The notes under the pieces were generated by a model. It ran no database searches. It worked only from the letters and a program-made list of their open reading frames with translations, and had not been told where the DNA came from. From positions 3,534,001-3,598,000 of the forward strand of contig CM030338.1 in the NCBI GenBank assembly GCA_017654855.1: a DNA stretch of 64,000 nt. Direction: 5' to 3'. This document shows positions 32,241-61,128 of this stretch, piece after piece. The position numbers and the translations under genes are program-made. How positions within the stretch are numbered: the first letter of the stretch is position 1; each line of letters begins with the position of its first letter. The stretch is from Podospora anserina (taxonomy: Eukaryota).

Positions 32241-34422
32241 TGGGCCGTGGCAAAAAAGGAACTGGTTGATGATATTTGGAGTGATCGTCCCGTTTCGCCA
32301 TGTCAAATCATCTGTCCCCGTGTGGCTAAGTTGTGATGCGGGCTTCAATGGACTGTCAACTACGCCTTCTTTGCTGTGCGTGTGTATCTTGGCTTGGCCT
32401 TGAGCCATGACTTGCACGTGGTGAACAGGTAAGGTATCTAGCCCTGATATGGTCTATCGAAAATTACAGGGCTTCATAAAGCAAGAGAGGACTGTTTTGG
32501 CGCCACTTATATGTTTAACTACAGTTCAAGAGTTGAGCCATATTCAAGGGCCAGTCACTATGTTGCGTAACCTGTTGACGATCCTCAAAAACTCGTTGCC
32601 TGTGTTTCAAGGCCTATTCAAGAGGTCCAAGTAGAAAGGCATATATTGGATAGCTGTTTGGAGTTGGGTGGAGAGCACCAAGAAGACTAAAATAATAGCC
32701 TACATAGGTACCTGTGTACATTGAATGGCCCTTTTCACTTTGTACCGCGGAGGGTATTGTTTCAGGGGATTATCCAAACAAAGTTTAATTATACAGAAGG
32801 GCATGCAAGCTTCTTTTTCCAAATTCATCCTTCACCTTTGTGTGTCAACATCGACCTCCACTGCGCCATAATGTTTCAGAAATCACTTCCAGACAGGCGT
32901 CCCTTCCACTCCCCGATTGCAACTGGCCACAACACCTTCCCGGCGCCATCCTCCACGCCGTCCATCTCAGGCGCAGCAGACATGTCCCCTGGATCTGTAT
33001 TCACCACCAGGCCTTGTCTTCCACACGATAGAAGCTTCTGGTTGGGCGATCATGTTGATGGCAGCTTTCGTTATGTTGGTATGAACGTATGCCCCATTTT
33101 TAGCTGCATGTTTGGTTTCATTTTCAAAGACTCCCTCCAGGGATGAGACGGTGATAGTGTATCCAAGCGGTCTGAGGTCCTTGCCTCCTTGCGTACTCTT
33201 GTCAACGCCAGCTCGCGTTGGCTGCCCTAGCCTTTCCCGTTTGCTTTGACCTGGCGCTGGACCACATTTAGCGTCTCCGTGAGCTTCAGTGGAGGGTCGC
33301 GGGGATAAATCAAGATGCATGGTAGATCCCATCACAGGAAATAACTCCCTGTAGAGGATAAGGAGCACAAAAGCGTTGACCTAGTGCAACGACACCATGT
33401 CTTTATATAGTATTTCGGAGAGAGTCTGGACAGAGGACGATTCAAAGTAAGGATGTCCCAACTCTATACGACGATCAGCCTTAACACCATCAAAGAGGAC
33501 CACGTTGTATTGCTGAGAAGAGGCCTCATACAGGCCGGAATCAGGGTCGACAATCATAAGACGATATAGCCACTACTCGAATCTGGTTCTTAAGAGTATC
33601 GCAACGGTGCATGGTTGTGGTATCTTGTGGTAGTTAGCCTAGATTAACACGAGCACGGGTGCCAAGGGCGGTTTTTCCGCTCAGTTGGAGTGACCCGGGA
33701 AGTGAGTGAGCTGAGTCGGCATAGCTGAAGACACCGCATGGTCGACACATTAATTTGTATACCAACTTGGAAGTGAGGGTCGTGGAGTAAGTATTTGCAT
33801 ACATAACAGAGACGAGAGCGGCTTGGCAGTCAGCAGCTGATATGCCACTGGACCTCATCCCGCCAGTTACAAGGTGACAGTTCGGCAGGTCTCGATCCAT
33901 CAGCTTGGAGACTCAACTAATGAAATGGCAACTTCATGACTAATTGTCAGTTTAAGGGGCTTCGAAGAACGATAATATAGGAGCCTAGTACAGAAGAGGG
34001 TGTGTAAATAGTAATGATGAACTAAAAAGAATCACTGTAAAGTAGAAACTGTATATGGACACATTCTTTATCAGTATTCGCATATTACACTTTATAGGTG
34101 TTAGGGTAATATATAGCTTTTATTACCTAAATTCCCTACTACATTACTATTTCTATATTTAAAATCAAGGCCCTGGTCGTTAAAACCCAAATTATTAACC
34201 TTCTAATATTTAAATTTTTAATAATCTCTTAATAATAATAACTAGATAAAAAAGGAAGGCTAGCGCGTAACGTAAAATAAGTAAATAATAGCCTTACTTA
34301 ATATTAAAGCAGTAACGTTAATATATATATTAAGGGACTAAAATAACTCTACACCTCCATTTGTAGGGACTTAGCTAGCTAAGTGTTACAGACCAACCAT
34401 ATAGCAAGGCAGAGTGGAGACT

Positions 34423-34820
34423 TGTGACGAACCTCTATACAGAACCTCTGAAAGGGATACGGGTTGAAGGTAACTTCTGACAATTGGTTCGGTGCAGCTA
34501 AACAGTATACAATAAGATGTCTCAATGTAAACACAAGGTACCGTAAATACAATTGTGAATTGCATACTGCGGAACTATTTGCAAGCTATCTAGTTCCTCC
34601 GTATATATAGACCTAATGCTAAGCCTAGATTATTCTATTTCTCCCCGGATCATAACCGACTCCTAAGGATCATAAGTGATTTCTGGAAATCGCTTATAAT
34701 TCCTTCATGTCCCGGATGATCCACCTCTTACTGGTCCATCCTCCTTTCTCTTGATTAGCTGCCGTGCCTCCTCTTCCCTATTGGTTGTTCTTTGCGGGTG
34801 TCCACATTATATTCGTGATA
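34423..34820 (-). mobile_element. Gypsy solo LTR (shared R-U5, distinct U3), no TSD
   Basis: TGTGACGAACC..GAACCTCTGAAAGGGATAC..TTCCTCCGTATATATAGACC block shared with the other LTRs; ends GTGATA (RIP of GTGACA); flanks AGACT/AGGTT differ. Confidence 0.8.
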
Positions 34821-35673: not shown

Positions 35674-36013
35674 TGTTACGGTTCTGGAAGACAGTGGGGC
35701 CACGACGGACCAATCAGGACTGGACCGCGCAATCGAGCGGGGCTCACGGTCCAGGTGGGCAAACGGACCAATCAGATGGGGACCGGGGACCGTCTGTAAG
35801 TCAACGGTCCACGGTCCCAAGGTCTATATATACGGAGGAACTGGCTGGTGTAGATAGACAGTTCCGCAGTATGCAATTCACAATTGTATTCACGGTATCT
35901 TGTGTTTACATTGAGACATCTTGTTGTGCACTGTTTAGCTGCACCGAACCCATTGTCAGAAGTTACCTTCAACCCGTATCCCTTTCAGAGGTTCTGTACA
36001 GGAGTTCGTCACA
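35674..36013 (+). mobile_element. Gypsy solo LTR, no TSD
   Basis: TGTTAC..GGTCTATATATACGGAGGAACT..TTCGTCACA; flanks GCAGG/CGTTT differ. Confidence 0.85.
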
Positions 36014-36144
36014 CGTTTCTTTCGATCCTAATATAGCCGGTCCTTCCTTTTTAATTCCGTAGGGTACTGCCAGTAACGCGCCTTTTATTTCCTAGAGTAA
36101 TTAAAGTATAATACTAATTATACTTAAGTCCCTTTATACTTTTT

Positions 36145-36214
36145 AACCTCGTAGTATAATATATAGTACGTTAGTTACTACAGTAAAGGTGCGGGTTCGA
36201 TTTCCGTCGAGGTT
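36145..36214 (+). ncRNA. tRNA-like module inside the Gypsy 3' region (antisense to pol)
   Basis: 7-bp acceptor-like stem AACCTCG/CGAGGTT, A-box-like TAGTATAAT, T-arm GCGGG-TTCGATT-TCCGT; 70 nt long. Confidence 0.7.
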
Positions 36215-39200
36215 CTATATTTAAGTTATAAATACCGTCCGTAAACTTAAATGTTTACCTTTTTAGTTATTACCGTTAATAGTATATTTTCGACTTTCTT
36301 TCATCGTAATTAAGGCATATAATATTAAATAGTGCTAAATTCTTTTATATTTATTAGTTTTATAATATAATATGTAGTATATTGATTATTATATTAAATG
36401 TATAAAATCGATTTTTTTTAAAGTTCTTTATATTTTAAGTTTAAAAATCTTTTTATCATTTAAATACGTTTTATTTATTTATTTAGATTTTAATCGGTTT
36501 AAGTATTGTTAGTATAACTTTGTTTATTTATTTAAGTAACTAAGATTTACTTTTAGCTTTTACGAGTCATTTATAGCAGAATATCTTAATTAATTAATTA
36601 AAGACTTTAATTAATTTACATTAAACTATAAATGTAAATATTTCTTTTATATCGTATTTTTTCTTTATCCTCCGCTACTTCCTATGTATTAGCTTTATTT
36701 ACCAGTAACATAGGTTTTAAAAGTAATATATAAAAATATATAACTTTAAATGTATTATATTAGGTAACTTTAATTCAAATACCGTTTCCGATATTTTCTT
36801 CTAGCCATAAATAAGCCTACTCTCCTATAGTCCAGCTTCTTATTAAGTCTCTTAGTACGTAAATTACGTGTGGAAAGGAATCTTATATTTTCCTGTTTAA
36901 AGCGAGGTCCTTTAAGCCGTTTAATATTATAATATTTCCGTATCTTTTGCCTTATAAACTTTTCTTTTATATTTACTGTAAAATATATATAGTTTATTTA
37001 CCTTAACCCTAACCCTAAGTACTTTAATGCTAGGTCTTTACTATAGCTTTATTTTATATTTAAAGTTTGTTAAAAATAGAGTAACTTTAATTATTTATAT
37101 TAATAATATATATATGTTAATTATAATATAGATAATCATTTAATTTAATCGTTTTAGTCGGGATTAATATAATTCTATAAATATTTGTTTTACGATTTAA
37201 TCAAGCCGTTCCGTTCCATTATTTATTTAAGGGTAGTAGACCAAATATATTTTATTTATTATCCTTAATCTTATTATTAATACTCTTGAAAATCTTACTA
37301 CGAATTTAATATAACGGTCTGTAATAAATTGTTTTAACTATATAAATATTATTATAATATACTATTATACTATATCTGGTAATTACTTTACCGACTAAGT
37401 CTCCTTATAAGGTAAAAAGTACGTTTACTTAGTGAGCTTATGGATTACCGCTAATATATCATTATATTTAACGCCGGTTATTACACTTTTAGATTTTAGT
37501 AATTTAGTAAAAAAGCTTATAGTAATTAAATTCTACAATCGTTCCGCTATTAATAGTGATTCTAAAAACCCGTAAAATTTATATTTTCTAACTTTTAATG
37601 CTTTTATATATAGTGTAATTAAATAACTTCCTTAATATTGTCTTCAATTTTTAATTAGTTAAAATAATATTTAATTTTCCCTATAGTTTTTACAATACCT
37701 ACATATTTTCGGAGCTTCGATCTCTATACTTTTATTACTAATATTATCCTATTACCTAACTTTATATAGACTCGATTTTTATATTCTAGTCTTTCCTAAT
37801 TATCTTTTTAAATAATTTATAGCTTTAATTCTTTTTATTCGTATTACTTTTTGATATTATTACTTCATTTCCTTTAATATTTATTTGAAATAGTTTATTT
37901 ATAATATATTACGTAATACTTTATTTACGGCTAAAGTAAATACTTAAAAGTACCTTTTAACGTCTCCTTAAATAGTAGTAGTAACCCCCTGGGTATATCC
38001 TTATAATAGTTAGCTTACCTGCTAAATGCGTATACCTTAGCGTTTTCCGAACCTTTTTTATAATTGATTTAAAAATTAAACTCCGAAAGAAACTTTAACT
38101 ATAGTATTTATTATATAATAAGGACTTTGATAGTAATAAAATATCGGAAATTCTTGTAATCTATATAGACTTATATCTTGTAATTATTATTATTAAAATA
38201 TAGCTTCTACTCTTTGAACGCTTCGATAATAATAAGTAAGTCTTTATTATAAATTAAAGTTCTAACATACCCCTTTTGAAGTTTTCGAAAAATAGGCTAC
38301 CGGGTATAGCTTTCCGTTATCGTTTCGCTAGCTTAATTATTGACTAATCGTATAGTTTAATATCTTGGCCTTGACCTTATATAATCAATTATGGTTTTAT
38401 AATTTAGATACCGGGTCCTTTAAAATAACTTCTTTTAGCTCTTAAAAGGCTTACTTTTCTTCCTACCTCCACCGGAATTCTATATCTTTCTTAACTAAAT
38501 AATTAAATAATTGCATAATCCTTATATACCCCTAGATAAATATCCAATAAAAATTTATAAACGTTAAAATTTCCTAATATATATTTATAACTATAGCGTA
38601 AACTAATCCTTAATTACTATAATTTTCCTAAGTTCTATACGAACCTCTCTTAACGATATTAAATATTGGAAATGTACTATCTTTTATACATAAAACTCGT
38701 TTTTCTTTTTATTAATCAAGAGTCCGGCTCTATATAGCGCGTTAAATATCTTTCGTATATATCGCTTATACTTCTCTAAAATACATAAATAAATAAAAAT
38801 ATTATTGAGATAGTATATTATTATTTTATCGAAGTACTTCCGGATTATATATTTAACACGAGATAGAACGTTATAAGTATATTAATTAGCCCAAATAGTA
38901 TTATAAAATACTCGAATTAATTATAAAGACTATAAAATATTATTTTCTATTTATTTCTTTCTTTAATGCGTATATAAACGTACCCGATAAGTATATCTAA
39001 AGGTATAAAGTATTGCGCTCTAACTAATAAACTTTATAATTTAAATATTAATAGTCATAAGTAATTATTTCTATTATTTCGTTATTTAATTAATAATAAT
39101 TAGTATATAGTTATGAATTACTGTGCTTCTTTAATATGAAAATATAGAGTATTTTACTAGAAATATAAACTCCCCCATATTTCTTTTTAAAAAGAAATTG

Positions 39201-40029
39201 GCTTATTTAAATACTTCCGGAATTTTTTATTTGGATTATCGTTAATATAATAGACCTTAAATAACTATATTTTAATTACTTTTTTTAGCTTAATTTCGTA
39301 GTGCTACGGTCCTCGCTCTAGAAGTCCCTCTAAATACTTAGCCGTAAAAGTTAGGTATCCTCGATATTTTACCGCTACTATTCTTTTTTACTTTTTCTAT
39401 ATTATTGTAGTAAGCGTACTTATTAACCTCCGATATTTCTACTAATATCGTTAACCTTATTTTTTTAAATTTTATTAGTTTTATTAATAAACTATATCAT
39501 TATTTTTCAATTCTCTTACCGTAATACCGCAAAAGGTATTTATCCTATACTTTACTTTATATATACTTTTAACTTTCCATCGTTAATTAAGTTTTTTTAA
39601 AGTCTTTTTAGTCGTAGGTAACTACTATCCCGTTAATCAATATCTAAGTTATAACCTTTATATTATAGTTACCCTAGAATTATATCCTTCGAGGGTTCTA
39701 CATTTATAATATCGAATATAATTAAAATTATTTTCTTTTCGATTATAATATTAGGAGGTAGTATTTCTCTATGGATTTTTCACGTCGGAAATAATCCTTA
39801 TATAACGATTTATTCCTTCTTTTTATTATAGTATTTTAATTTAGTATATAAATTATAACTAAATTAAGCTTATGTTTATACTTTTATTTATTAATACTAT
39901 TACCTAAATATTCTTTTAGTATACTATAACCTAAAAGCATTTTGTTTTACTTCTTCCCTATATAGTAGTGACTTTACTAATAAATATCGTGTTATTATCC
40001 TAAACTTTCGTTTTATACCGATACTTCCG

Positions 40030-40471
40030 TGTGACGAACCCCTGTACAGAACCTCTGAAAGGGATACGGGTTGAAGATAACTTCTGACAATTGGTTCGGT
40101 GCAGCTAGACAGTGCACAACAAGATGTCTCAATGTAAACACAAGATACCGTGAATACAACTGTGGATTGCATACTGCGGAACTGTCTATCTATACCAGCC
40201 AGTTCCTCCGTATATATAGATCCTGGGGCCCTGAGGTGCTCGCCCTGCTACGGCCCCGATTACCCATAGCACATTGCATCCTGCGATGTGCTCGTCGTGC
40301 TATGCCTCTGATCACTCGTAGCATCTTGCATCCTGCAGAGTGCTCGTGTGTATTGGCGCCATAGCACTTTCGTCCAGCTCTGATTGGCTGTCTCCTGACT
40401 TCTCTAATGATTGGCTAGGGACGTCCTGCGCCCCACATGTGGCGCGGCCTGCTGTTCGGTTAACTGTGACA
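40030..40471 (-). mobile_element. Gypsy solo LTR with 5-bp TSD
   Basis: TGTGAC..GTGACA, 442 bp, TSD TTCCG on both sides; little RIP damage. Confidence 0.95.
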
Positions 40472-40805
40472 TTCCGATACTATTATTCGTAATCAGCTAC
40501 AGGTTATTAATCCCTATAAAGGGCCGCGAGTTATTTCTTAAATAATTATATTATTTTAAAAATATCCTTTTACTTTATGTTATTTAATAATATAAAATCT
40601 TTTAATTATTTTCGCTTAACTTCCTTTTATTTTCCGTCTTTAATTTCCTTAATATTTTATTATATTTATATCCGATAGTAAATCCTTTACTTATTATTTC
40701 TTTAGGCCTTTTTATTTAATAATATTACTTAACTTTTCCTCGTAAATATAACTCGTAGTCCGGGCTTGGGTACTATTTCAATATTGTTTCTTCCTAAAAA
40801 ACTAT

Positions 40806-41166
40806 TGGTTTGGGGTGCGGCCACAGGCCTAAGAGTATAAGTAAGGAAGCGGGGCTCTCGGAAGACTCAGGGGTTCAGGGGTCATGTATATAAGCGGTCT
40901 GCTTCGGACATTCTATTTTAGACAAATCATCGACTTTTATTTTTCTTCGTATTTTGTGCCTTGCACGCGTGCAGGCAATTCTGGCCCTCTGATCAGGCCA
41001 ATCCGGTGCTTATTATGTGGCCTGCGAGCCCATAGTGTCTTTTCTTTGTCTTGAGTGAAGTGCGGCCTGCGAGCGAGTCACTGTCACGCAGGCGTGTCCA
41101 TTCAGGGACCTGTTGAGGGTATATTTGCGGTGTTGTGGTTGGTTTGTGTGTTTTTTCACCATTTCA
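40806..41166 (+). mobile_element. 361-bp LTR-like insertion with 4-bp TSD
   Basis: TG..CA ends, internal GTATATAAG, CTAT on both sides; the Gypsy sequence resumes collinearly after it. Confidence 0.7.
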
Positions 41167-41608
41167 CTATATTATCATTTATATTCCTACCATTTATATA
41201 TTCGAAGTAATATCTTGTATACTTTAAAGCGAATTATATTATATAAAGGATATCCTTTAATTTAACCGTGTCCTAAACCCTTTATAGGAAATAATCGTTT
41301 AGTTCCTCACAGGCTCTTTTTAATGCAACTATAGTCCTCTTAATTAACTCTAGCTTACTTTCCTTATTTACTTTACGTACCGGCTAATAGCCGTACAGTA
41401 ACTTACTTTAATATTACTTTACATACTTATATATAATATATTTAAACTAAAGTACCCTCTAGTACTCTAAATCTTTAAATATAACGTTATACCGTATTTC
41501 CTTTATAAGGTATATAATATATAAGGATAGATATATTTCTTAGTATTATCGCCATTTCAATTCTTTTAGTTTTTTTACTTTTTTAATATTCTTCTTAACT
41601 TTTATATA

Positions 41609-43463
41609 ACGTGCATAATAAGCGAGCGCCGTAGATAAGCGAGCGCCGTACTTTTTACCACCCTACCACAGCTATCTTTAATTATATAACTATAATATTA
41701 GGAAATAACGATAATTGAACTAGAAATAGATGAATCAGATGATTCTGTAGCCTCCTGGTATGTACGTGCATTATAGTTAGGCTTACCGCATACGCTACAG
41801 TACCGAATCTTCGTACGAGACTCCCCTACACTATCACTACTTTATTGTATTTCCTAGGTTACTTACTTACCTATAGCCTTTTAATTTAGTAAATTCTGTG
41901 CCTTTTATATAGTAAGTAACCTTTTAAGCCGCACACGTGTTTTTTTGGTTCTCTGTCTTTTACTAAGCTCCTTATTAGCCTTACGTAGCGAAGAGACCTC
42001 TATATGGAAAAGAGCTACCTCGTATATTATACTTATTACTTCTTTAGTAAATTAGTTTATAGCGGCTAGTATTAAAGTTAAAGAGCTATCTTAATAATTA
42101 GAAATTCGAGTTTTAATAAGTATTAATTATAAAGTAACCTTTCGAAGGTTATATAGTATTTAAGAGACTTAAGGTAATACCGTAATTAAGTTTAAGGCTA
42201 AAGGTATTAGGGTCTAAATATATATATTTAATTTAAATATTATCCTTTTTAAATTATATAATATAACATTAAGTTTAATAAAATCTTTTTAAATATTTTT
42301 TTTTATAATCGAAATAAAAAATATTTTTTAAATATATAAAAAAACTTTAATTTATTAATATATATAATATTTATTTATATTAATTATTTAATTTAATAGC
42401 TATATTTTTTTTAATAATATAAAATAATTAATATTTAATAATTAATGTATATAGTAAAAGTACGGAAGTATATATAATATAATAATATTATATTTTAATA
42501 ATAAATCTCGAATTTTTTAGAGTAATAGCTTTTATAACCGTTAAGGATTAATAACCGATATTTATTTTTCGTATAAAATACTATATAAAAATTAAAGTAC
42601 CGAATTTAATTTATATTTTTTTATAAAGAATTTAATTATTATTAATTATTATAATATATTAAGTAATTAAAAAATTATATTTTTAATATTAATTAGTAAA
42701 ATAATATTATTCAATTAAAATATTAAATAATAAAATAATTTAATTTAAAATATTTACTTTTTAAATAATTATAATTTATTTATAATTATTCAACTAAATT
42801 TATTTAATTTCATTACGGTTATCCGAAGTTATAATTATTATATTTATAAAAATAATATTTATTATAAACCTAATTTCGTCGAAATTATAAATAATATTAT
42901 TTATAATACTATATTTAACTTTAATATTCTGTATAAAGGTAAATTATTCGCTAAAAACCTTTAAATTCTTATATTTAACCATTTAATAATTATATTTATA
43001 TGTAAAACACGTCCGAAGTTCTAATTAATATTTAATAAAGTTATAAGCCTATCGTACGTTAATAAGAAGCGCGTCGCGTTTATATAATAATCGATTAACT
43101 ATATCTTTTATATACGAAAGTCGGGGATAAAATATACGTATAGATAACTTAATTATATATGAAATAATTAATTTTTTTTTAATTTTATAAATTTACGCGA
43201 ATTAACTAAAGTATTGCGTCGTATAAGTATACCGGTAAATCGATAATAAATAGTTCTATCGTTAACTTTATAGATCTTTACTGCGGCTCGTTTACTTAGA
43301 CTTTTATTGTTTTTTATAGCTTTAGCGGCCAGAATTACTCTAGTTTCGTTAAAGGTAAAAAACATGGTTTTTGGTTCAGAAATGGAATATTAAAGGTAGA
43401 GGGTTAGGTCGCGTGGAAAAGTGCGGCGCTCGCTTATCTGCGGCGCTCGCTTATCATACACGT
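41609..43463 (-). mobile_element. Fot1/Pot2 (pogo-like) DNA transposon, RIP-inactivated
   Basis: TA-flanked ~45-bp TIRs ACGTG..(ATAAGCGAGCGCCG)x2; 1855 bp; transposase ATG at 43365 with HTH N-terminus and a C-terminal CCHC remnant. Confidence 0.93.
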
Positions 43464-44897
43464 TACAATGTTTAACAAGTTAACTTCGTAAATATTTTTC
43501 AAAATTTTAAAGTTAATTTTAATACTTTTAAAACTATAATACTAAAATAAAGAATTAATTACAACCTATTAATGGTTAGGTTATTCTTCTGTAAAAGAAC
43601 GCTCTTAATAGTTTAAAGTAAGCTTCTTAGTCCTCATAATGAGAGGTTTCAGTAATATTTAAAGCCTTAGGTTTGATGTTTGTATTTTTAATATAGTTAT
43701 TTATTTTTACCCGAAAAATAAAATTATTATTATTAACTACCTTGAAAATTATTTATTTGCCGACCTTAATTCATTTACATATATATCATGGGCTTTGAAC
43801 AAAACTATAAGAAAATATAATAATAATGTGGAAACCTAGGTATTATTTACTATTAGCATAATACCAATCTAAATTATAATCATTTTTAATATCATATCAA
43901 GATTAACGGAAAGGATTATGGTACCCAAAAAGATATCCAAGTGTATTTATATAGTACTAATTTATATATTAAAATATAAAATTAACAAAGTAATTCAAAA
44001 TACCCAACCCCCCTTATTAAACTATATTGACTCTTATCATGAAGTATAAATAAATTAATAAATCAAGTAACAAAAATTCAACAATTAATATTAATATAAA
44101 TTATATAAATTGAAGCTTTACTTTAAACTTATTTTATATTAAGAGCAAAAATAACAATAAATCAAAATAAATAAATACAATAAAAGATATCTTTGCATAT
44201 ATTAAGAATATCAATAAAGAGTTTAAAAGAAATTGAATTAAAAGAAAGGTGAAAGTGGTTAAAGGAAGAGTTAAAGGAATAAACAAAAGTTAAAGGAATA
44301 GAAAAAGTAAATAAATGAAAAACTTAGCTTTTTAATAAAGTGATAATAAAGAATTGTGTAAATAAGTGAATATATTTTTTATATTATATCATTATTACTT
44401 TATAAAGCATGGAATACAATAAATAATATATTGTTAATAGCACATATAAGATTATAAAAAGAACTGTATTAAACAGGTTAATATATTAAATGTGAGGTAG
44501 TTTTTTTAATACATTTCATAGTATCTACGAGTCGTTATTTTATAAAGTATAGTTAGGGATATTAATAGGCTCTAATAATATCTAACATAATGGGCAGTAT
44601 ATTGGGCGACGGGTTAAACTATTTATCATTATACTATATACACTGTTCCTGTAGGAGTCTCTTTTTTTTTAATTAATAACTTTACTAATATTATATGTTA
44701 GCCTCTTCTCTTTATTGCCACACTACCTATTAAAGGTTATATTTCATTATTATAAAGATATTAGAAAGAAAATATTATTTATGAAGAAAGTATAAACAAA
44801 GTAAAGTTTAAAAAATCTAATAGTTTAAAAGAGAGAGTTCAAGATTAGTAACTTAATTAAAAAGATTAGAAAAGTAAATGATAATAGTATTTATGGG

Positions 44898-45343
44898 TGT
44901 GACGAACCCCTACCCAGAACCTCTGAAAGCGATACTAGTCGAAGGCGCTTCTGAACAACCTTGATTCGGTACAGCTAAACAATGTACAACAATGGCTTGT
45001 CTCAATCACAATAGTCTTAATACCAACGAATGTGACTTGAATTGCATACTGCGGAACTATCAACTACCCATCTAGTTCCGCCGTATATATAGACCTCGGG
45101 ACCCAGAGGTGCTCGCCCTGCTATGGCCCCGATTACCCCGAGCATATTGCATCCTGTAGAGTGCTCGTCGTGCTATGCCTTCGATCAGCCCAAGCATGTT
45201 GCATCCTGCAGACTGCTCGTGCTTCTTGGCACCATAGCACTTCTGGCTAGCCTTGATTGGCTGCCTCCTGACTAGTCTAACGATTGGCTAGGGACGTCCC
45301 GCGCCCCTCATACTGCTGACCTGCCGTTGGCTTAACTGTGACA
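44898..45343 (-). mobile_element. Gypsy solo LTR, no TSD
   Basis: Close relative of 40030-40471 and 60422-60873; flanks ATGGG/CAATG differ. Confidence 0.9.
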
Positions 45344-46279
45344 CAATGGCAGCAGTCGCGCTCTGTTAGTAGTAATCCGCTTATTACTTAGGCACGTTCT
45401 AACCTTTTCCTCGTCTGGTAGCGGCAAGCTTTCTTAGTAAACTTAAACTTATATTTCTCGCCTCTCCGACGTATATATATCTATACCTTAACATTATAAG
45501 TCTGATGGATATTAAGGTTATTTTTTTTAAGAGTACTTCATTTTCTTTTAAATTTCTAATTACTTCGGTCTCTTCTAGCCCCTTAGATATACTTATTAAC
45601 TGCTATTATGAAACATCAACGAGGTAAGGATTATATTATGGCCTTAGAGTAGGGTATAAATTACTAGTTTCTTTTATCATCGCTAATTTTTGTTGATATC
45701 ATATTAGTAGTATTCGTAGTTTATAGATTATATATTCGAAGACTTACTTTAGTTCTCTATTAAGCTGCACTTAGCTAGTCGAGTGGACTAGGATTATATA
45801 GCATTCCTCCCCCCTGTAAAAACATCGCATATGAAGCACCTCACTTAATGGTAGGATGTCACGGTTTAGAAGAAGCGGGGTCGCTAGGACCAGTGAGAAC
45901 GAGCGACGGATAAGTGGGGCCTGTGGAGCAGGGAATAACACGGGCTAAGGGATCTAGGAATTGGAAGATAGATCCGGGGATCTAGAGTTTGGAAGCTAGA
46001 TCCAAGGTATCTAGGAAATAATAAATAGTTCTACATACGGAAGTACTTAGAAGTTTAGGTCTATATACGGAGGAACTAAATAATATAAATAAATAGTTCC
46101 GTAATATATAATTTAAATTATAATCGTTAGTATTTAAATTATTACAATTAAAATAAGTTATTTATTATATACTATTTAACTATACCAAATTAGAATTATT
46201 TAGAAGTACCTTTAATTAATATCCCTTTTAGAGGTTGTAGATAAAGGTTCGTTATACGCTATATTTTTACTTTAATTCT

Positions 46280-46911: not shown

Positions 46912-49900
46912 ATTCTATTACGGATAAATATAAGCGTTTTTTTATTACTATAGCCGGACCCAAAAACGTTTAGATAAAAAGCGTTCCGCTTAGCCTAGGC
47001 AGTAAAGGACCTTCTATTAATATTACACTTATATCCTTTACTGTAAAATAGGTTATTAAGCGTTTTGAGGAATTCGAGGATGAGGCTTAGTAAACCCGGG
47101 AGTAGATTATTACTATATCAATTACGCTTAGGATAATACCGAAATTCCCGGTACCGGAATATTATAGAGAAGGAAAGATAAAGCTTAGAGAGTTTTTAAT
47201 TTAATTTAAAATCTATTTTCGTTAGTACTTAAATTAATTTAGTAACGAAGAGTCGAAAGTAATCTTCGCGACTACTAAGCTTAAAGATAAGGCTCTTATA
47301 TAGTTCGAACTTATTTTCGATAATTACTATAAAATAGAGCCGGAGGACTAAAAAAAGATTACTATAAAATACTTCAAAAACTATCGTATTTTCGAGAGTA
47401 AGCTTAAGGAAGTATTTAGAGAGTACGACGAAGTAAAGTATATGTAAAAGAGGCTTATAAACTTACGTTAAACACGCTTAACGGTTAATTACGTGACTGT
47501 ATTTAAAATCGATAGTTTACGTAATACTATTAATAATAAAGGATTAATATGACTCTTTTATAATAGCCTTAAGGAAAAAATAAAAGATAAATTATATAAA
47601 GAGTCGAGGATTAATATTATAGGTAAGTATATCGCCACAGCTATACTAATCGATAATTAATAATTCTAACCTTATACGGGGAAAAAAAGTAATAACCGGG
47701 GTTATTATAGTAATAAGGAATACTTTAGTAATAACCGCCCTAACAATAAATATAAACGGAAATGCTTTAATATTAATTACTTTAATTTTACGTACTTGGG
47801 ACCGATAAACGTTAATATTATTTAATAGTAAAGGCCGTAAGGCCGGCACTAGGGTAGAAATAAGCTTAAATACTTTGATTATAATAAAGTAAAATACTTC
47901 AAGAAGAACTGTAAAGTATTTAAATTACTTGGATAAAAAAAGAAGATTATAGTAATTACTATATCGAGGGGACCGAGGGTTATAAATGTCGTAACTATTG
48001 AGTATTAATAAAGCGAAGCGGTAAGCGTCGAGAAGGACTTTAATTAGTACGCTAGATAAAAGGAAGCAGAATTCTAGGAGCTGCGGAAAGTAGTGGAAAG
48101 GCTAAAGGCAGCGTACGAAGAAAAAGATCTTTAAATATAGGTATTATAGGATTAGTTAATATAAGTTACTATAGAAATCGCTACGGAGGTCGTTAAGGAC
48201 GATAACTCTATATAGTAGGAAGGACTTACTAGGTAAACGATACTGGAAAAGTAATATAGCAAATACGGAATTACTATTTCGTAAAAAATATTATAGCCTA
48301 TAAAGTTTATATATAAAAGCTAAAAACAAATATTAAAAAAGTAAGAAAGTCATTAATATTAAGATCGTAAAGTTACTAAAAATATATTTAGCCTTATATA
48401 ATATATACCCTATAAAGGAAATATAGTATAGTTTTATTTTAAGTATCCGGAATATCGGAAAGTACCTTAGTCCTAGTATATTATATATAAATATAAAAAT
48501 TACTATTAGAGTAAGTCGCTATATAGTTACTAGCCGGTACGTAAAGTAAGTAAAAAAAGTAAGCTATAGTTAATTAAAAGGACTATAGTTAGATAGAAGA
48601 GAGCCTAGGAGGGCCTAAATGATCACGTTTTATAGAAGGTTTAAAACCCGGTTAAATTAAAGGATAGCTTTAAATAATACAAATCGTACTAAAGTATATA
48701 AAATACTATACTAAATACACGGACGGTTAAAATGAAAATAATAATATATATTTTTAGGAAAAAGGGATATTAGGATAGTACTTAAGCCTAAATTACGTAC
48801 TATATTTATAGGAGAAAGTTAAGTAATACTATTATATAAAAGCGCTTAAGTAAATAATTAAGTAAAAGAACCGCTATCGGATAAGGATATAAAAAAATAT
48901 TAAGGAAATAAGAAACGGAAAATAAAAGTAAACTAGGCGGGTATAGTTAAAAGACTTTATATTATTAGATAACCCGGAGTGGGAGGACGCTTTTAAATAA
49001 TATAACTGTTCAAGGAACGACTCGCGGCCCTTTGCGAGGGCCAGTAACCTTTAACGGACTACGAATAGTATTATCGGAAGTATCGGTATAAGGTAATGGT
49101 ATAGAATAACGATCCGATTCTAGTTAATAAAGTCGTTACGGTATAAAGAGGAGGTATAAACGATCAACGCTTTTAGATTATAGCGTACTAAGAGGATATT
49201 TAAGGGATAGTATTAGTAAATAAAAGTATAAAAACGAATTAATTTCTCTATAGTTCGTATACTAGATTAAATACTATAAAAGAAAAAGAAGAAATAGATC
49301 GTTATATAAAGATTATTTTTAACGTAAAAGGTCTATAGAGAAATAGTACTTTTAGATATTATAATCGAAAGGAAAATAATGGTAATTATGTTCGATATTA
49401 TAAATATAGGACCCTCGAAGGATATAATCCTAGGGTAATTATAATATAAAAACTATAATTTAAATATCGATTAGAATGATAGTAGCTACTTACGATTAAA
49501 GGAACTTTAAAAGTATTTAATTAGTAATAGGAGATTAGGAGTATATATAGAATAAAATGTAAAATAAGTACCCTTTAGGGTATTACCGTAAAGAGCTTAA
49601 AAAGTGATAATATACTTTATCGATATAAGTAATAAGATCGAAGAAGTAAGGTTAACGATATTAGTAAAGATATCAGAAATTAATAAATATATTTACTATA
49701 ATAGTATAAATAGTATAAAGAAAGGCGAGAAAAAGGTAATACCGGTAAAATATCGAGAATACCTAGCCTTTACGGCTAAGTATTTAGAGGGACTTTTAGA
49801 GCAAGGACCGTAGGACTATAAAATTAAGTTAAAAGAAGGAGCCACACTACGGTTATTTATGGTCTGGTATATTAACGATAGATAGAGTAAAGAATTACGG

Positions 49901-52681
49901 AAGTATTTAGACGAGAATTTAAAGAGAGGATATATTAGGGAGTTTATATTATTAATAAAATATTTTATATTCTTTATACTGAAGAAAGATAGTAACTTAC
50001 GATTGTATATAAATTACCGTTAAATAAATAATAATATAGTAAAAAATAACTACCTGCAACCGTTAATAATTAGGTTCGGAGTTAATTAATTAAAGCGTAA
50101 TATTTTATACGCTTAAATATACTTATTAAGTACGTCTATATACGGATCAAGGAAGGAAATAAATAAAAAATAGCGTTTCGTATACCCTATAATGATTTTA
50201 AGTATTTCGTAGTACTATTGAGGTTAATTAACACGCTTACGACGTCTTAATCTCTCATTAACTACACAATCCGGAAGTATCTTGATAAAATAGAAATATA
50301 TTATTAAAATAATATTTTTATCTATTTACATACTTTAAAGGAATATAAGCGATATATACAAAAAATATTTAACGTACTATACGGAGCCAAACTTTTAATT
50401 AATAAAGAAAAGAGCGAGTTTTATATATAAAAATAGTATATTTAAATATATAGTATTATGAAATAAAATTCGTGTAGAAATTAGGAAAATTACGGTCGTT
50501 AAGGTTTCATTTATATAATATTTTATATATATAAATTAAGGAATTTTTAATGTTTATGAATTTCTATTGGAGATTTTTCCGGAAGTATATAGGTATTACA
50601 TAATTTCCTAACTACTTAATTAAAAAAAATATAAAGTTCCAGTAAGGGTAAGAAGAAAAATAAGCTTTTTGAAAATAAAATAAAACCTATTTTAAAGGAC
50701 CTGGTACCTAAATTATGAAACTCTAATCGACCGTCTGAGGTCGAGGTTAATATATTAGATTATACGATCGGTAAATAAATGGGTTAGCGAATCGACGACG
50801 GAAAGCTATACTCGGTAACCTTTGTTTCGAAAAAGCTGAAGGGAGCTAGTTAAAACTAGCTAATTTATAATAAGGAATTTTGCCATTATCAAAGTATTCG
50901 AAAAGTACAGACCATATTTTCAAAATATTAATTATAAAATATACATTTATATAGACTATAAAAATCTATAATATTTTGCTATTATACAGTTTTCTTAACG
51001 TATAGTAAACTTAATAATTAGAAATTTTTCGGAATTTAATTTCTGAATTAACTATAAAAAAGGTTCAAAAACTTGAAAGTAAATATATTTAACCGGGCAG
51101 TTGATTATTATGATAGTGAATTTAAAGAGTTATTATTATTACTTAAGAAAATACCGCAGGATACTTTAAAGTATTTCCTTTATTTACAAATAAAGTATTA
51201 TGGAATATATTATATATAAATTACTTTTAAGAAATATTAACGAAAATGAAATACTAATACTACGGAATAATATTAATAGGAAAAGTCGAAGCCGTAGTAT
51301 TTAGAAAGATAATTAAGGATGATTATAATATAAGAATAAGGCCTACGTAAAGCTAATACTAAATTAATATTAATAATAAAAATCTATAGACTAAAGCTTG
51401 GAAAATGTATAGATATTATTAAAGTTATAGAAAAGACTAAGTAGTACTTTAATTAACCTAAAATTAAAAATAATACTAAGCAAGTTATTTATTTATATTC
51501 TACGTACGAAAAAACAAGAATTATACAGTATAAGCTTTATGATCTTGAAAGCTGTTATTAATAGTCAAATAGTTGTAAAGTTTAGTTACGATAGATTTTA
51601 TGACTAAATTATTGAAATCTAAAAGTACAGTAACTGCCGTTAAATATAACAGTATATTAACGGTAATTAATAGGCTTAATAAATAAATATAATTTTTACC
51701 CTATAAAAAAACTTAATCGTCAAAGTCATTAATATATATAGTACTATAGTATATTATATTAATATAATTATAATTAAAAGAATTTATAATAGACTATAAT
51801 ACTAAGTTCGTGTTAAAGTTTTAAAAAGCGTTAAAAAAATGAAGTGAAGGGTAATAAGTAAAGCGTTCTCGGCCTACTACCCTCAAATAAACGGTTAAGC
51901 GGAATAACAAAATTAAATCATAGAATAGTACTTATAAACCCATATTAATTTTTAATAAAACGACTAAGTTAAACTACTACTTATAGTACAGTTAGCATAA
52001 TATATCGCTAATTAAAATAACAAAGTTACGCTCTTTTTCCCGAATTATAAATATAAAGTCTACATTTATTAGGGACCTAATATAGAGCTACGTAAGGCTA
52101 CGGTTAAAGTAAATAAACTATATATATATTACAGTAAATTTATGGAAGAATTAGAGTTTATAAGGGAAAAAATATACAAATATTAAAAGGCTCGAGGGAC
52201 CTTATTTTAAGAGGGAGAATATAATATTTCTTTCTATACGTAATTTACGTACTAAAAGACTTAGTAAGAAGCTAGACTATAGGAGAGTGGGCTACTTTTA
52301 AATTAAAAGGAAGACAGCGGAGGCGGTATTAAGTTAGAGCAACTTAGTACGATGTATCTATAATTACATACTTTATATATTTTACTCTTAAAATCTGTAC
52401 TACCGGTAAATAAAGTTAATACCGAAAAAGTACCGGCGAATAAAAAAATATAACAGAGAAAATATTACATTTATAGTTTAATAAAGGTTAATTAAAATAC
52501 TTAGTTCATTATTTAAATTTTTTAAGTATAAATGATTTATAGGAAATAGCGGTAAACCGAAAGTACTTAAACAAATTAAAAGATTTTCACCGGTAGTATT
52601 TGGACTGACCTAAATTATTTCAATAATTTAAAAAATTAGTATTTAAAATTATGGGTAATATATATAAAGTTAAATATAAAG

Positions 52682-52751
52682 AACTTCGACGGCAGTCGAA
52701 CCCGCACTTCCGAGGTAGCAATTAACGTACCATATACTATACTAGATAATT
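52682..52751 (-). ncRNA. tRNA-like module inside the Gypsy 3' region (antisense to pol)
   Basis: Reverse complement reads TAGTATAGTATATGGTAC..TTGCTAC..GCGGGTTCGACTGCCGTCGAAGTT; homologous to 36145-36214. Confidence 0.65.
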
Positions 52752-54784
52752 AATAAATATTTAGGGACCTACCTATGATTAACGCTATATACCTTAACTA
52801 TTTTAAGAAGTTAGAGGCGTATTACCGGTAATACTTTAGCCCGATAGGAAGGAAGGACCTGCTATATTAGGAAATAAAGAAAGGTCGGAAGGCTAATCGA
52901 GGCATAAAAGAGAATCCAGAAAAGAGAAGTTAGAAAGAATTACAGCGGAGGTCTTCCCTATGAAACGGTCCCAAGGAGAAGCGGAATGAGTAAATTATTC
53001 TTTATATCTAACTATTGCTAACTCCTCTGTACTATCGAAACTACGGAAAACGACCCGTAATATTAGTTCTAACTAAGCTTTCTTTTAGTAATAAAAACGG
53101 CGGATGTTAGCGTAGATTAGTTTTATAATTTTCTCGGCTTACTTTGATTTAGCTTTTATAGCGTCGTAGTAAAAAGAATTCCAAGAAAACTATAGAAAGA
53201 ATACGTTTAAAGCGTGATAACGAAAAAAGATACAGTAATTATATATATAATAGCGTAAAAAATCAGAAAAGGAAAGAACGTAAGAAAAATCATAGCAAGT
53301 ATACGCGGAATAGAACGAGGATATTATAATCGAATTACTGAAGACTCTTTTCGTAAAGCTTTACCGGTACAATATTTTAAAATATCTTGATTTATTTATA
53401 TAGTTAAAATATCGCGAAAAAGGGAAATAACTAAGAGGAGAGATTTATAGGTAGAAGAAAAGGCGATAAACGGTTATTTTAAGAATTAAGTCGACGGAAT
53501 TTCGACCTAGAAGTAAGGGTATTATATTATAGTCAAACTAATTAGTAGGGCGAACCGTATACGGGGTATAAAACGTATAGCTAATCGTTAGTAAAACTAA
53601 TTGTAGTAAAAAATAGCCTCGCTTAACGGATTATTATTAAAAATAATAACCCAGGAGATGATTATTATTAAAAAATAATAATCTAGGAAAGGATTATTAC
53701 CAAAGGAGAATAATCTAGGGAATCCTAAGATCTATATATACGGAGGAACCTAACGGTTAACGGAAGATTCTATAGTATATAATATAAGGTATAATCGTTA
53801 TTATCTTAACTATTGTAATTAGGGTAAGCTATTTGTTCTATACAATATAGCTGTAGCGAATTAGGATTGTTTAGTGCCTTCGATTAATATTCCTTTCGGA
53901 GGTTCCGGATAGGGGTTCGTTATAGTTGTAAATTAATTTTTAATGTAAAACCCGACGATTATAAAGATATTCTAAGTAAGGAAATTATTAAAGGTTGGAT
54001 ATTAAAAACCTTTTTATAATAAAAAATATAATATATTTAAAAGCGTTTAATAGGAGGATAATAAATACGTTTCTTAATTAATTACTTTTTTTATTTAACT
54101 TTAATGATTTATATAATAAGATTAACGATAAACAGTTAATATAGTTGTTTTATAGTATCTCTTAGGAAAATATAAAAAGATTTAAATATCTAAAAAGAAA
54201 GATGTTATTTTATAAATAAATATATTAATATAATTATCTAGATTAACAATTAAGAGTTTTAATATTGTAAAGAAAAAAAAGAGTTCGGGAATTATAGGAA
54301 GCTGATTGCTTAAATAACAATAAATAATAATAATGTTTTAATATTAATTACTCCGAAATTATTTATATAGAGCCTATGACAATTATACGGTTTAATAGTA
54401 AAGTTTGTAAGCCTAAAGAAAAACTAACTTTAAGTTTTTAATTTCTAGAAAAGTAAATTACTTTAAAGAAAATTCTAAAATATTTAAATAGTTTATAGAA
54501 ATCAGAAATCGGAATAATGGTTAGATTAAAAAGTATAAAGCTTATTAAAAACAATACAATTATTTATTATAGAAATACTCTAGGAAATTATGAAGAGAAA
54601 GAGTAATAGTTCCCTATTTTTGGCATTGAGAAAAGGAATAATTTATAATTATATACAAAATATCGGTAATTGAATATTAAAATTGTAAAGGCATAATTAC
54701 TTACTATTATAAAAGTCAAGGCTCCGGATTTAATTAATGAAAGTATAATGACTTATATATTTAAATATATTATTGGGATACACC

Positions 54785-54815
<31 letters not shown>

Positions 54816-55279
54816 CTATATAAAAGAAATCAATAAAAATAGCGTTTCCTTCACATTATAACTATCTTAACTATTGCGTTATATTGTTTAAATTAATCAA
54901 TATACCCGTAAAGTTTTGATCTTTCGTCGATTATATTATCTGAAAATATATCGATAAAAAAAGTTTAATATTCTAATAACGTTTTCATTTACTTGTATAC
55001 TTAAATGGAATATGGACACTACATAGAGGAGATACTTAATGCGCTACATAGAGCCTGACTTAAAATAAATAATTAAAACAGCGAGTTTTATATTTGAAAA
55101 GTAAGGTAGTCAAAAAAATTTATATTCATAGGTAAGGTATATATAGATTTTAAAGCATTAAAATTATTCAAAATTAGTTACAATATAATTATAAATATAC
55201 GATAGTGAATTCTAGAATTGATTAATTTTTGTCAAGTATTTATTTGGAATTACGTAAAAATTAAACGTTTATTTAACTA

Positions 55280-57140
55280 ACGTATTTGATAAGCGAGCGG
55301 ATCGGACAAGCGAGTGGATCGATTTCGTACGCGATATAGCTCTCTACCTGCAACATCGATTTCCTCCACCATACCAAAATATCTTCGATTCTAGTTAAAG
55401 CAAAAGTTATTCTTGCACTCGAAGCTCTTAAAAATAACCCTAAGCTAAGGCTCAAAGCTGTAGCGAGGCTCTATTCTGTACCTTATACTACCCTCCATCG
55501 CCGGCGCGCTAGTAAGCCTGCACGACGCGATATTCTAGCCAACTCACGTAATTTAACGGATCTGGAGGAGAAGACGATAGTTTAGTACGTTCTTAAGCTA
55601 TCTGCACGCGCATTCCCACCTAGATTAAGTGGCGTAGAAGATATGGCCAACCAACTGCTACGCGTACGCGACGCGCCCCCTATTGGTCAACGCTGGGCAT
55701 ATAACTTCGTTAAACGCTAGCTATAGCTCCGTACGCGTTTTACGTGTAAATACGACTACTAGAGGGCTAAATGTAAGGATCCAAAGGTTATTACCGAGTG
55801 GTTTACGTTCGTACGGAATATTAAAATAAAATATAGTATTATAAATAACGATATTTATAATTTTAATGAAATTAGGTTTATAATAAGTATTATTTTTATA
55901 AGTATAGTAATTATAATTTCGGACGGTTTTAATAAAGTAAAAGTAATTTAGTTTAGTAACCGCGAGTAAATAACGGTAATCCAGGGAGTTAATGCCCTTA
56001 GTTAAGCTATCCCGCCTTTTATTATTTTAGCCGTATAGTATTACTTTATTAATTAATATACCGAATATAATTTATTATTTATTTAATATATTATAATTAC
56101 CGATAATAGTTAAACTATTAATCCGGTAAATTTAAATTAAATTAAATATTTCGATTATTATATAGTATTCCGTACGAAAAGTAAACACCGATTATTAATC
56201 TTCGATAACTACAAAAACTATTACTTAATTAAATTCGAACGTTATTACTAATAAAATAATATTATTACGCTCTATATACCTCTACACTCCTCCTACCTCC
56301 TCCAACTACTCAATATTAATTACTTTAGGCCACTAAAATAAGCGTACGGCCGCCAGATCGAGGGCTTAATACGCATATATATTAACCACGTAAGTAAACT
56401 CGAGTTTCTCTGTGCCTTCCGCGAAGCTTTTTTCACCTCTATAACGGAGAAGAATATATACGGTAGCTTTGCGGGTACTAGCTTTATACTATACGATCTA
56501 GAGAAGGTACTTTCTAAACTAAATATAAAGCTTTGTACGCTTATACCCCTATCCTTAAGGCCGGGCACGGTACTACCTTAGGTATTCCAGATACTATAAA
56601 ACCCCCGAGAAACTAATTTATAGTTAACGCTTATTAAGACTCGCATTACTAACTATTAAAATAGCTCCCCGACTTTAATGTTAGCTGCGGTAGACTAGCT
56701 TACTAAAGGTATAATAGCTGTAATACATTAAGTGGCTCCCCTTCAGTTAGAGGTATCTTCGCTCCGTAAGGCGAACGAAGCACTAAGTAAGCGCCGGAGA
56801 GCAAAAAAAACACGCGTATAGCTTGAGGATCACTTACTGTGTAAGATGCACAGGATCTACTGGACCAGAAGGCTGTGGGTGGAGAGGTGGCGCAAGGAAA
56901 GGAGCAGGGTGGTGGTAGTATAGGGGGAGGGCGTACGAAGGTTCAGTGCTGTGGTGTGTGCGGCAAGCCTGGCCATAATATCCGTACGTACCAGGAGGTT
57001 ACAGAAGAGTCTGATTCAGCTGTTTCTGATGTAATTGTAGTAGGTTAATAGTGTTGTTGTTTTGCAATTGAGGATGGTTGTAATAGGGTAGTGGAAATCG
57101 ATCCACTCGCTTGTCCGATCCGCTCGCTTATCAAATACGT
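55280..57140 (+). mobile_element. Fot1/Pot2 (pogo-like) DNA transposon, RIP-inactivated
   Basis: TA-flanked TIRs ACGTATTTGATAAGCGAGCGGATCGGACAAGCGAGTGGATCG; 1861 bp; remnants VPYTTLHRRR, YNFNEIRF, HSSYLLQLLN, CGVCGKPGHN. Confidence 0.94.
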
Positions 57141-60873: not shown

Positions 60874-61128
60874 AGTACCGAAATAGCCGGGCGTAGCCTT
60901 ACTTCCCTAAACGAGTTCGAAGCGCTAGATCGTCGCGAGTTCAAGGCCGCTATGGCTATATAGGCCCCAGGTATTTTTAACTCGAACGTTTAGAACGCCA
61001 TACTAAGCGGCGTCCCCTTAATTAACCCTCTCCTTTCGCCTCTGGCCTAGGCCCCTCTAAATTCCTCCGGCGGATTTCCTTTAACTTCTTGGGCTAGCTA
61101 GTAGCACACCGGTCGCTTGGTACTTACT

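Follow-up and report, generated by a model that had tools for sequence, protein, structure and literature searches.

What is a tRNA-sized sequence, complete with motifs resembling an RNA polymerase III (Pol III) promoter, doing inside a long terminal repeat (LTR) retrotransposon, and how did it get there? The question is raised by a 64,000-nucleotide stretch of Podospora anserina DNA (contig CM030338.1, positions 3,534,001 to 3,598,000), hereafter the window, to which all coordinates below refer. Several copies of a Ty3/Gypsy element in this window carry such a module, antisense to their pol region, and the carrier looks like a crapaud-like Ty3/Gypsy chromovirus of the Podospora anserina complex. 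Our analysis indicates that a tRNA-derived sequence was probably captured once and has been passed on ever since within a single crapaud lineage.

Since repeat-induced point mutation (RIP) is taken here as C>T and G>A changes only, the window sequences were compared in a purine/pyrimidine code. A previous sequence-only reading of the window had reported a tRNA-sized module at three sites. We confirmed alignable 71-nt tRNA-like sequences at all three, with the motifs it had named: the acceptor strands AACCTCG/CGAGGTT, the T-stem strand GCGGG, the B box GGTTCGA(T/C)T, and the loops TTGCTAC, TTACTAC, and CTATTAC. Flank alignment revealed a fourth, heavily RIP-mutated module (GC 0.13) in copy 1 of the element (copies are numbered as in Table 1). 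In an Rfam cmscan of positions 33000–64000, the tRNA family RF00005 matched the distal module of copy 1 at 37.4 bits (E = 1.5e-4, against a gathering score of 29) and the module of copy 3 at 27.2 bits, under the gathering score (E = 0.092). The module of copy 2 and the pol-proximal module of copy 1 were not listed at E ≤ 10. Two of the four modules, all of them RIP-mutated, were thus detected, and one reached the gathering score.

The four modules aligned without gaps over 71 columns. With a hand-written cloverleaf (acceptor stem of 7 bp, D stem of 4 bp, anticodon stem of 5 bp, and T stem of 5 bp), 89.3% of 84 cells were paired, compared with 42–50% when the 3' partners were slid by 1–3 columns, and the acceptor, D, and T arms were retained in this test. 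A covariance model built from the four modules recovered them and nothing else in the window; the next best match scored 16.9 bits (E = 0.26). Furthermore, the B box is perfect in the module of copy 3, and in the others after computational reversal of RIP (deRIP), when compared with GGTTCGANTCC, which we take to be the consensus. The tRNA-like observation is real and far beyond chance, and the Rfam scores together with the cloverleaf pairing indicate that the module is tRNA-derived. We also considered a chance or RIP artefact and rejected it in view of the Rfam score and an apparently unmutated contig described below.

Even so derived, the module appears to be a pseudogene that encodes no functional tRNA. 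It starts with AA, lacks the canonical 7-nt anticodon loop and has no CCA; the bases past the discriminator are TAT or TTTAT, which cannot be derived from CCA. The anticodon loop has 6 nt in the Rfam alignment, with 5-bp stem pairing in copy 3. From a deRIP consensus of three copies, ARAGORN predicts a cloverleaf of 71 nt whose loop has 8 nt and whose 'anticodon' has four bases, and it finds no tRNA in a consensus of four. The loop strings, previously traced to a Gly-GCC-like ancestor, are indeed RIP-compatible with YTGCYAC; however, the stem requires their first base, which makes the 7-nt Gly-GCC reading a guess, and the loop comes out at 6 or 8 nt. Among the four individual modules, ARAGORN calls one, the distal module of copy 1, as 'tRNA-Stop(tta)', a mis-fold in which the D stem has 3 bp and the extra arm is long. 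Modules of this kind call for caution when tRNA genes are predicted in genomes rich in RIP.

We also searched metagenome contigs for relatives. A RIP-degenerate pattern of the 3' half gave four matches, three of which were tRNA-Glu(CTC) genes in tRNA clusters on bacterial-looking contigs, while the fourth was not a tRNA. The 5' halves of those tRNA-Glu(CTC) genes also resemble the module, a likeness that does not fix the isotype. These pattern scans of the metagenome contigs yielded no retrotransposon-embedded relative of the module. A side observation is the metagenome contig L003, which matches the pattern of the T arm and 3' acceptor strand at 11300–11375; ARAGORN reports no tRNA there, and it may be the tRNA-like 3' end of another RNA.

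Pfam places the pol domains of copies 1 and 3 on the opposite strand, and the modules are therefore antisense to pol and past its end, just beyond the integrase SH3 domain and a chromodomain-like end. The sequence-only reading had given this orientation correctly and had put the module just downstream of the chromodomain. Its position just past the integrase SH3 domain and the pol end stands, but Pfam found a chromodomain in none of the three RIP-mutated fragments tested, and the chromodomain-like pattern (..YLV.K...WEP-like..NL..) is seen by eye only. That the module is not the primer-binding site (PBS) also agrees with our results, because it lies after pol, ~900 nt before the 3' LTR, and has no TGG complement. 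Additionally, no LTR copy of the window contains a match to the module model (best 13.6 bits, E = 1.5, at 59426–59507). Being internal, antisense, and absent from the LTRs, the module cannot be the promoter of the element; it is neither PBS nor promoter.

Two further claims of that reading, that all Gypsy copies carry the module and that it always sits at the same position, do not hold. A fourth Gypsy copy, copy 4, has no match to the module model (best 10.8 bits, E = 6.2). In copy 1, a 206-nt unit is repeated in tandem: the previously reported site lies in the distal repeat, and the module of the pol-proximal repeat had been missed; each half of the tandem holds one tRNA-like sequence. The module dosage is therefore zero in copy 4, one in copies 2 and 3, and two in copy 1. 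Since copy 4 is without it, the module is dispensable for at least that lineage.

Both flanks are common to all modules: in the module's own orientation, a leader of 10–32 nt, depending on the copy, of which ~18 nt are shared, and a trailer of ~39 nt. The pairwise differences among the four modules comprise 118 transitions and 24 transversions, a ratio indicating mostly RIP on one ancestral sequence. The shared flanks, this single RIP-mutated ancestor, and the restriction of model matches to the four modules support the view that the module is part of the element, as opposed to a series of separate insertions.

Every copy in the window has been destroyed by RIP. Nine stem pairs are changed on both sides (0 of 500 shuffles), and stem covariation had been proposed earlier as a test. 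All nine are of the RIP type, C-G to U-A, and were not counted; stem covariation was rejected as evidence of selection, since RIP on both strands gives CG>UG>UA without it. Per column, the 71 nt have a transversion load of 0.197 (three pairs summed), compared with a mean of 0.233 in 2580 pol windows, placing it at the 41st percentile. The 71 nt thus show no detectable extra constraint relative to pol windows, a comparison of four sequences that has little power.

The absence in copy 4 helps to delimit what was gained or lost. Copy 4 is collinear with copy 3 on both sides (57662–58462 with 62139–61320, and 58485–58705 with 61091–60873, in purine/pyrimidine-coded matches), and has 22 nt where copy 3 has 228 nt, so that a block of ~206 nt with the module is missing. 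The block seems to lie between two copies (S1 and S2) of the last 60–80 nt of the pol region. In RIP-aware alignments, three of the four S1-by-S2 comparisons scored above all 200 shuffles (z = 5.2, 6.2, and 5.9), and 3 of 200 shuffles reached the fourth (z = 2.6). S1 and S2 differ by 12–18% transversions, compared with ~8% in the orthologous pol of copies 1–3; this greater divergence suggests that the event is older than the split of copies 1–3.

The S sequences also carry traces of exchange. S of copy 4 shows a strong likeness to S2 of copy 3 (z = 11.6), with one transversion in 48, and the ~220 nt beyond S2 in copy 3 are 90% identical to copy 4 in purine/pyrimidine code. Copies 1 and 2 share another type of S2 and downstream sequence, with one transversion in 51. 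From this distribution of types, copy 3 is best described as a recombinant of module-bearing and module-less relatives. We observed that 60880–61130 of copy 3, which is of the copy 4 type (58485–58705) and not of the copy 1/2 type, is also much less RIP-mutated. At ≥80% likeness, no other contig in the three assemblies described below matched the copy 3-specific stretch 60880–61103; with few RIP partners, such a lone stretch would fit its higher GC content.

The module is not confined to the window. Twenty public sequencing runs under one organism label contain the copy 3 stretch, and contigs of X1, X19, and X13 (DNA) and of X20 (kind guessed as RNA) were compared with 60880–61700 at 80% likeness. 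Contig depths were summed relative to the single-copy flank, a measure that is not a copy number and shows that many other contigs match; parts of 60880–61103 and 61216–61355 without extra cover are uninformative. The tRNA-like sequence reached 22x in X1, 13x in X19, and 33x in X13, comparable with the two best-conserved pol pieces, the chromodomain-like piece (47x, 7x, and 34x) and the SH3 piece (42x, 19x, and 32x). Among the contigs listed, at least 10 in X1, at least 9 in X19, and at least 13 in X13 start their match at the tRNA-like sequence, and their left-flank consensus is the leader of the copy 1/2 type. The tRNA-like sequence is joined to the chromodomain-like piece in three (X1), two (X19), and four (X13) contigs, and one contig each in X1 and X13 resembles the tandem pair ('go back 48').

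In X20, a 772-nt contig with a depth of 210 holds an apparently unmutated module with the same leader and trailer, which convert to the versions of copies 1 and 2 by C>T and G>A changes alone. The contig shows 8 differences from copy 3 in 58 nt, 9 being predicted by the deRIP consensus. Its 5' end, AACCTCGTAGTG, indicates that the AA start is original. The depth is no proof of expression, because the kind of run was guessed and contigs show neither strand nor ends. A different contig, found in X19 and X20 at 61128–61187, matches only positions 1–59 of the tRNA-like sequence, with 10 differences, and neither of its flanks is related. This contig probably holds a true tRNA gene of the host, a candidate relative of the donor.

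These results suggest the following history. In the 3' untranslated region (UTR) of one crapaud-like lineage, the module consists of a leader of ~10–32 nt, the 71-nt cloverleaf, and a trailer of ~39 nt. It was probably acquired once, by non-homologous recombination that also duplicated ~60–80 nt of the pol 3' end, giving the order S1–module–S2. The likeliest routes of capture would be a template switch in reverse transcription or a repair event with filler DNA, two routes that are indistinguishable here. Afterwards, the module would have been copied as ordinary cargo at every retrotransposition. Recombination between the S repeats could then alter its dosage, to zero in copy 4 (which either never gained or lost it), one in copies 2 and 3, and two in copy 1. 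Exchange with module-less relatives occurs as well, because the 3' part of copy 3 is copy 4-like. TFIIIC and Pol III might still bind intact copies through the perfect B box and the A-box-like stretch, and a short antisense RNA might result. A captured tRNA was among the options put forward in the sequence-only reading, and of those options it fits best.

Several observations weigh against parts of this history. When S1 and S2 are aligned in purine/pyrimidine code only, they score no better than shuffles (z = 0.1–1.6), although such an alignment is too permissive for the pyrimidine-rich S region. S of copy 4 has no significant likeness to S1 of copy 3 (z = −0.6, 141 of 200 shuffles) and a weak one to S1 of copy 2 (z = 2.3, 4 of 200). 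The long S duplication is therefore not secure, and a simple insertion of ~207 nt that duplicated only a short sequence would be an alternative. Nor is gain versus loss in copy 4 polarised, as S1, S2, and S of copy 4 are about equidistant, except for the pair of copy 3 S2 and copy 4. Folding energies do not favour the cloverleaf (z-scores of −0.8 to +0.4), and on the deRIP consensus the cloverleaf has −11.5 kcal/mol compared with a minimum free energy of −21.6 kcal/mol. With respect to the donor, the metagenome contigs gave 0 matches to a near-full-length RIP-degenerate pattern of the module. Passenger status would follow from an absence of detectable constraint on four sequences, and persistence in many copies, one apparently intact, is also expected of a useful module. 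The name crapaud itself comes from the LTR architecture, the domain order, and the host.

The last points lead to the alternative that the element has kept the module as a functional Pol III/TFIIIC unit, in which the A-box-like stretch and the B box recruit TFIIIC and Pol III and an antisense RNA of ~110–120 nt, or a chromatin boundary, benefits the element or the host. We consider this unlikely, although much of the anatomy is compatible with it. The B box fits the consensus, directly in copy 3 and after deRIP elsewhere; pairing is retained in the acceptor, D, and T arms; and many genomic copies still contain the module, as does the apparently unmutated contig (summed depth of 210 in the run guessed to be RNA). 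LTR elements that keep Pol III promoters are known in Helenus and Cassandra, according to the available text of PMC10886601. A run of 5–8 T lies at about +40 past the tRNA-like sequence in all four modules. However, that T run is in sequence also present in copy 4, and the least mutated S (S2 of copy 3) has a mixed C/T tract in its place. It is doubtful that this run serves as a Pol III terminator or that it provided microhomology at the junction, and it may be largely a RIP product; if it were genuine, Pol III transcription would end ~40 nt beyond the tRNA-like sequence and scarcely reach into pol. The 71 nt are no more conserved than pol windows, copy 4 does without the module, and the stem-pair changes are of the RIP type, for which selection is not needed. 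Binding of TFIIIC in intact copies is plausible from the motifs, but it seems improbable that intact crapaud elements carry a working tRNA gene (tDNA)-like module, that is, a TFIIIC/Pol III site at the pol end that yields a short antisense RNA or a chromatin boundary.

An independent tRNA-derived short interspersed nuclear element (SINE), inserted into an ancestral element by retroposition mediated by a long interspersed nuclear element (LINE) and then spread as a nested pair, is also improbable in our estimation. Such an element would account for the A and B box motifs in a tRNA-like head, and for a ~206-nt block that is present or absent as a unit. A possible ~12-nt direct repeat (CTTT..TT) is visible by eye at both ends of the block in copy 3 and once in copy 4, and tRNA-related SINEs with target-site duplications (TSDs) of 4–14 bp are known in filamentous ascomycetes (as described in the part of PMC5063351 available). 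In contrast, the flanking repeat is apparently 60–80 nt long instead of a short TSD, although a short repeat is possible given the purine/pyrimidine-only scoring. Within the block, 10–32 nt precede the tRNA-like sequence, and neither the 39-nt trailer nor the sequence beyond it shows an A-rich or LINE-like tail. Other genomic copies, among the contigs listed, share the crapaud-type leader, the exception being the contig that matches positions 1–59 and resembles a real tRNA gene. A classical SINE insertion fits these features less well than a capture does.

It is very improbable that the module is a relic of the primer tRNA of the element, copied into the plus strand when reverse transcription read through or was primed ectopically. 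The sense strand of the element does carry the tRNA complement in the same polarity as a PBS would, but no CCA complement stands beside the acceptor (the post-discriminator bases are TAT or TTTAT), leader and trailer exceed a mature tRNA, and the module lies ~7 kb from the 5' LTR and adjoins no LTR. Least credible of all is a nested solo LTR of a Helenus-like terminal-repeat retrotransposon in miniature (TRIM), for although Helenus LTRs contain tRNA-like sequences, occur in fungi, and are common as solo LTRs (available text of PMC10886601), and ~200 nt would be a suitable size, the block has neither TG...CA ends nor a 5-bp TSD, both of which are displayed by two genuine solo LTRs of the window (TSDs TTCCG and GTACT), and the fungal Helenus reported there, which is linked to Copia, comes from Pucciniales and a few Agaricomycetes.

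The coordinates of the carrier and its modules are collected in Table 1. The left 34 kb of the window is GC-rich and genic, encoding eIF3c, a ZIP transporter, MDM10, and a DUF2293 protein; the MDM10 open reading frame is 99% identical to a protein named for Podospora anserina. From ~34.4 kb on, the sequence is an AT-rich, RIP-mutated transposon nest. The LTRs of the Gypsy copies measure 403–452 bp and have TG...CA ends, a TATA box, a variable 5' part, and a conserved 3' part of ~200 nt, which is common to eight LTR pieces in the window. In the part of PMC10787394 available, crapaud is described as an element whose LTRs of ~400 bp are conserved in the 3' half and variable in the 5' half; it encodes GAG and reverse transcriptase–RNase H–integrase–chromodomain, and shows heavy RIP, internal-region variants, and recombination between subfamilies. 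The LTR architecture, the domain order, and the host fit this description, from which we take the name; the RNase H and integrase domains, the heavy RIP, the variation of the internal region, and the recombination between subfamilies are likewise shared, the likeness being one of description. A difference is that tRNA is not named in the main text of that paper (0 occurrences).

Table 1. Coordinates of the tRNA-like modules, the sequences bounding them, and the Gypsy copies that carry or lack them
Feature	Position	Strand or sense	Details
tRNA-like module, copy 1, distal member of tandem pair	36145–36215	+	Rfam RF00005 37.4 bits; ARAGORN; own model 94.2 bits
tRNA-like module, copy 1, pol-proximal	36356–36426	+	own model 64.9 bits (training sequence)
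tRNA-like module, copy 2	52681–52751	−	own model 79.9 bits; not listed by Rfam at E ≤ 10
tRNA-like module, copy 3, least RIP-mutated	61129–61199	+	Rfam 27.2 bits; own model 88.4 bits
Tandem duplication, copy 1	36065–36427	+	36065–36216 matches 36271–36427, offset 206 nt, 89% over 157, E = 5e-42 (purine/pyrimidine-coded self-BLAST)
S1, copy 2	52549–52609	+	RIP-aware local alignment to S2, z = 5.2, 0/200 shuffles as high
S2, copy 2	52784–52845	+	RIP-aware alignment
S1, copy 3	61239–61316	−	pol end/chromodomain-like coding stretch, upstream of module in element sense
S2, copy 3	61033–61111	−	second copy of the same ~60–80 nt, downstream of module
Single S, copy 4 (module-less site)	58466–58546	+	
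Gypsy copy 1	36271–41608	sense minus	purine/pyrimidine-coded map
Gypsy copy 2	48310–53926	sense plus	reverse complement of copy 1
Gypsy copy 3	64000 down to 59405	sense minus	
Gypsy copy 4	54609–59316	sense plus	more diverged, 81–90% identity to copies 1–3 by segment (purine/pyrimidine code)
Integrase C-terminal SH3 (Tf2-1 type), copy 3	61480–61659	−	Pfam PF24626 SH3_Tf2-1, 7.5e-7
RNase H, copy 3	62867–63154	−	Pfam PF17917 RT_RNaseH, 2.7e-8
RNase H, copy 1	38268–38471	−	Pfam PF17919 RT_RNaseH_2, 1.6e-7
3' LTR, copy 3	59405–59849	−	
3' LTR, copy 2	53525–53926	+	

Some other features of the nest were observed. Between pol and the 3' LTR, which are ~770–950 nt apart, there are ~700–950 nt without recognised coding capacity (52846–53524, 58547–59242, and 61032–59850), of two poorly alignable types; in copy 3 this non-pol sequence amounts to ~940 nt when a nested solo LTR is excluded. 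That solo LTR (60422–60873, TSD GTACT), in the 3' UTR of copy 3, and another in the pol of copy 1 (40030–40471, TSD TTCCG) belong to the same LTR family. The variable 5' part of the LTRs contains tandem repeats of ~52 nt (40236–40347, 45106–45220, and 60630–60748). Inside two candidate 5' LTRs, at 44879–44896 (−) and 46257–46275 (+), no PBS could be read, as the sequences there are not tRNA-PBS-like and differ from each other. An inverted duplication (34390–34614 and 35820–36043, 95.6% identical in purine/pyrimidine code) marks the edge between the genic part and the repeat nest; it consists of the 3' half of an LTR and ~30 nt of the Gypsy 3' region, and breaks the 3' region of copy 1 at 36015. 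Two RIP-mutated copies of a DNA transposon lie within copy 4 (55279–57143) and on the broken 5' side of copy 1 (41606–43465). Their Pfam matches to DDE_1 (2.5e-6) and, below the cut-off, HTH_Tnp_Tc5 (0.0075) suggest a pogo/Fot1-like element.

How, then, does the module compare with known systems? By analogy, its closest known relatives are Helenus and Cassandra. Helenus (TRIMp3; Kojima 2024) is a short non-autonomous TRIM of 311–1263 bp with a tRNA-like sequence within its LTRs, which is thought to drive the element's own transcription. Helenus occurs in fungi and in other groups; its tRNA-like sequence is unlikely to encode a working tRNA, and insertion of a SINE or small RNA has been proposed as its origin (available text of PMC10886601). 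The same text describes Helenus, Ajax, and Cassandra together as miniature non-autonomous LTR elements with a tRNA- or 5S-derived sequence in the LTR, thought to be a promoter. As in Helenus, an LTR retrotransposon here carries a tRNA-derived sequence with Pol III promoter motifs in a fungus; in contrast to that description, the carrier is an autonomous chromovirus of ~7–8 kb, which encodes RNase H and integrase SH3, unlike a pol-less TRIM, and the module is internal, in the 3' UTR, and antisense. Cassandra TRIMs of plants are described, in the portions available of 10.1101/2023.07.14.548913 and PMC7215508, as non-autonomous elements with a 5S rRNA-derived promoter in their LTRs. They resemble the present element as retroelements that carry a module derived from a Pol III gene through many rounds of copying, and they differ in the source (5S rRNA instead of tRNA), the location in the LTRs, the lack of autonomy, and the plant host. 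Ascomycete tRNA-derived SINEs such as AfuSINE2 (part available of PMC5063351) share the tRNA-like head, the A and B box motifs, and a length of 100–300 nt; they disperse themselves with TSDs of 4–14 bp, whereas the unit described here was seen only in the retrotransposon, has no recognisable tail, and is apparently flanked by a long duplication.

In yeasts, a lone B box can bind TFIIIC and mark a chromatin boundary. The B box is what the module, known from its sequence alone, has in common with such tDNA/TFIIIC boundary elements. If intact copies did work in this way, crapaud would be an autonomous LTR retrotransposon that spreads Pol III-type boundary elements as TFIIIC sites, and binding of TFIIIC or Pol III would tie a retrotransposon enriched at centromeres to chromatin functions of the tDNA type. 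If the module is only cargo, it would provide a clean natural example of the capture of a host sequence by a fungal LTR element, and its presence, absence, and dosage could serve as markers for crapaud lineages and their recombination.

The word 'tRNA' does not occur in the main text of the crapaud paper (PMC10787394) or in that of a Podospora centromere preprint (10.64898/2025.12.02.690432), and the literature searched yielded no account of a fungal Gypsy element with a tRNA-like unit inside it; supplements were outside the scope of both. The LTR elements known to carry pieces of small-RNA genes (Cassandra, Helenus, and Ajax) are miniature and non-autonomous and have the piece in their LTRs, whereas in the present case the carrier is an autonomous chromovirus, abundant in a model fungus, in which the tRNA-derived unit is internal, antisense, and present in many copies.

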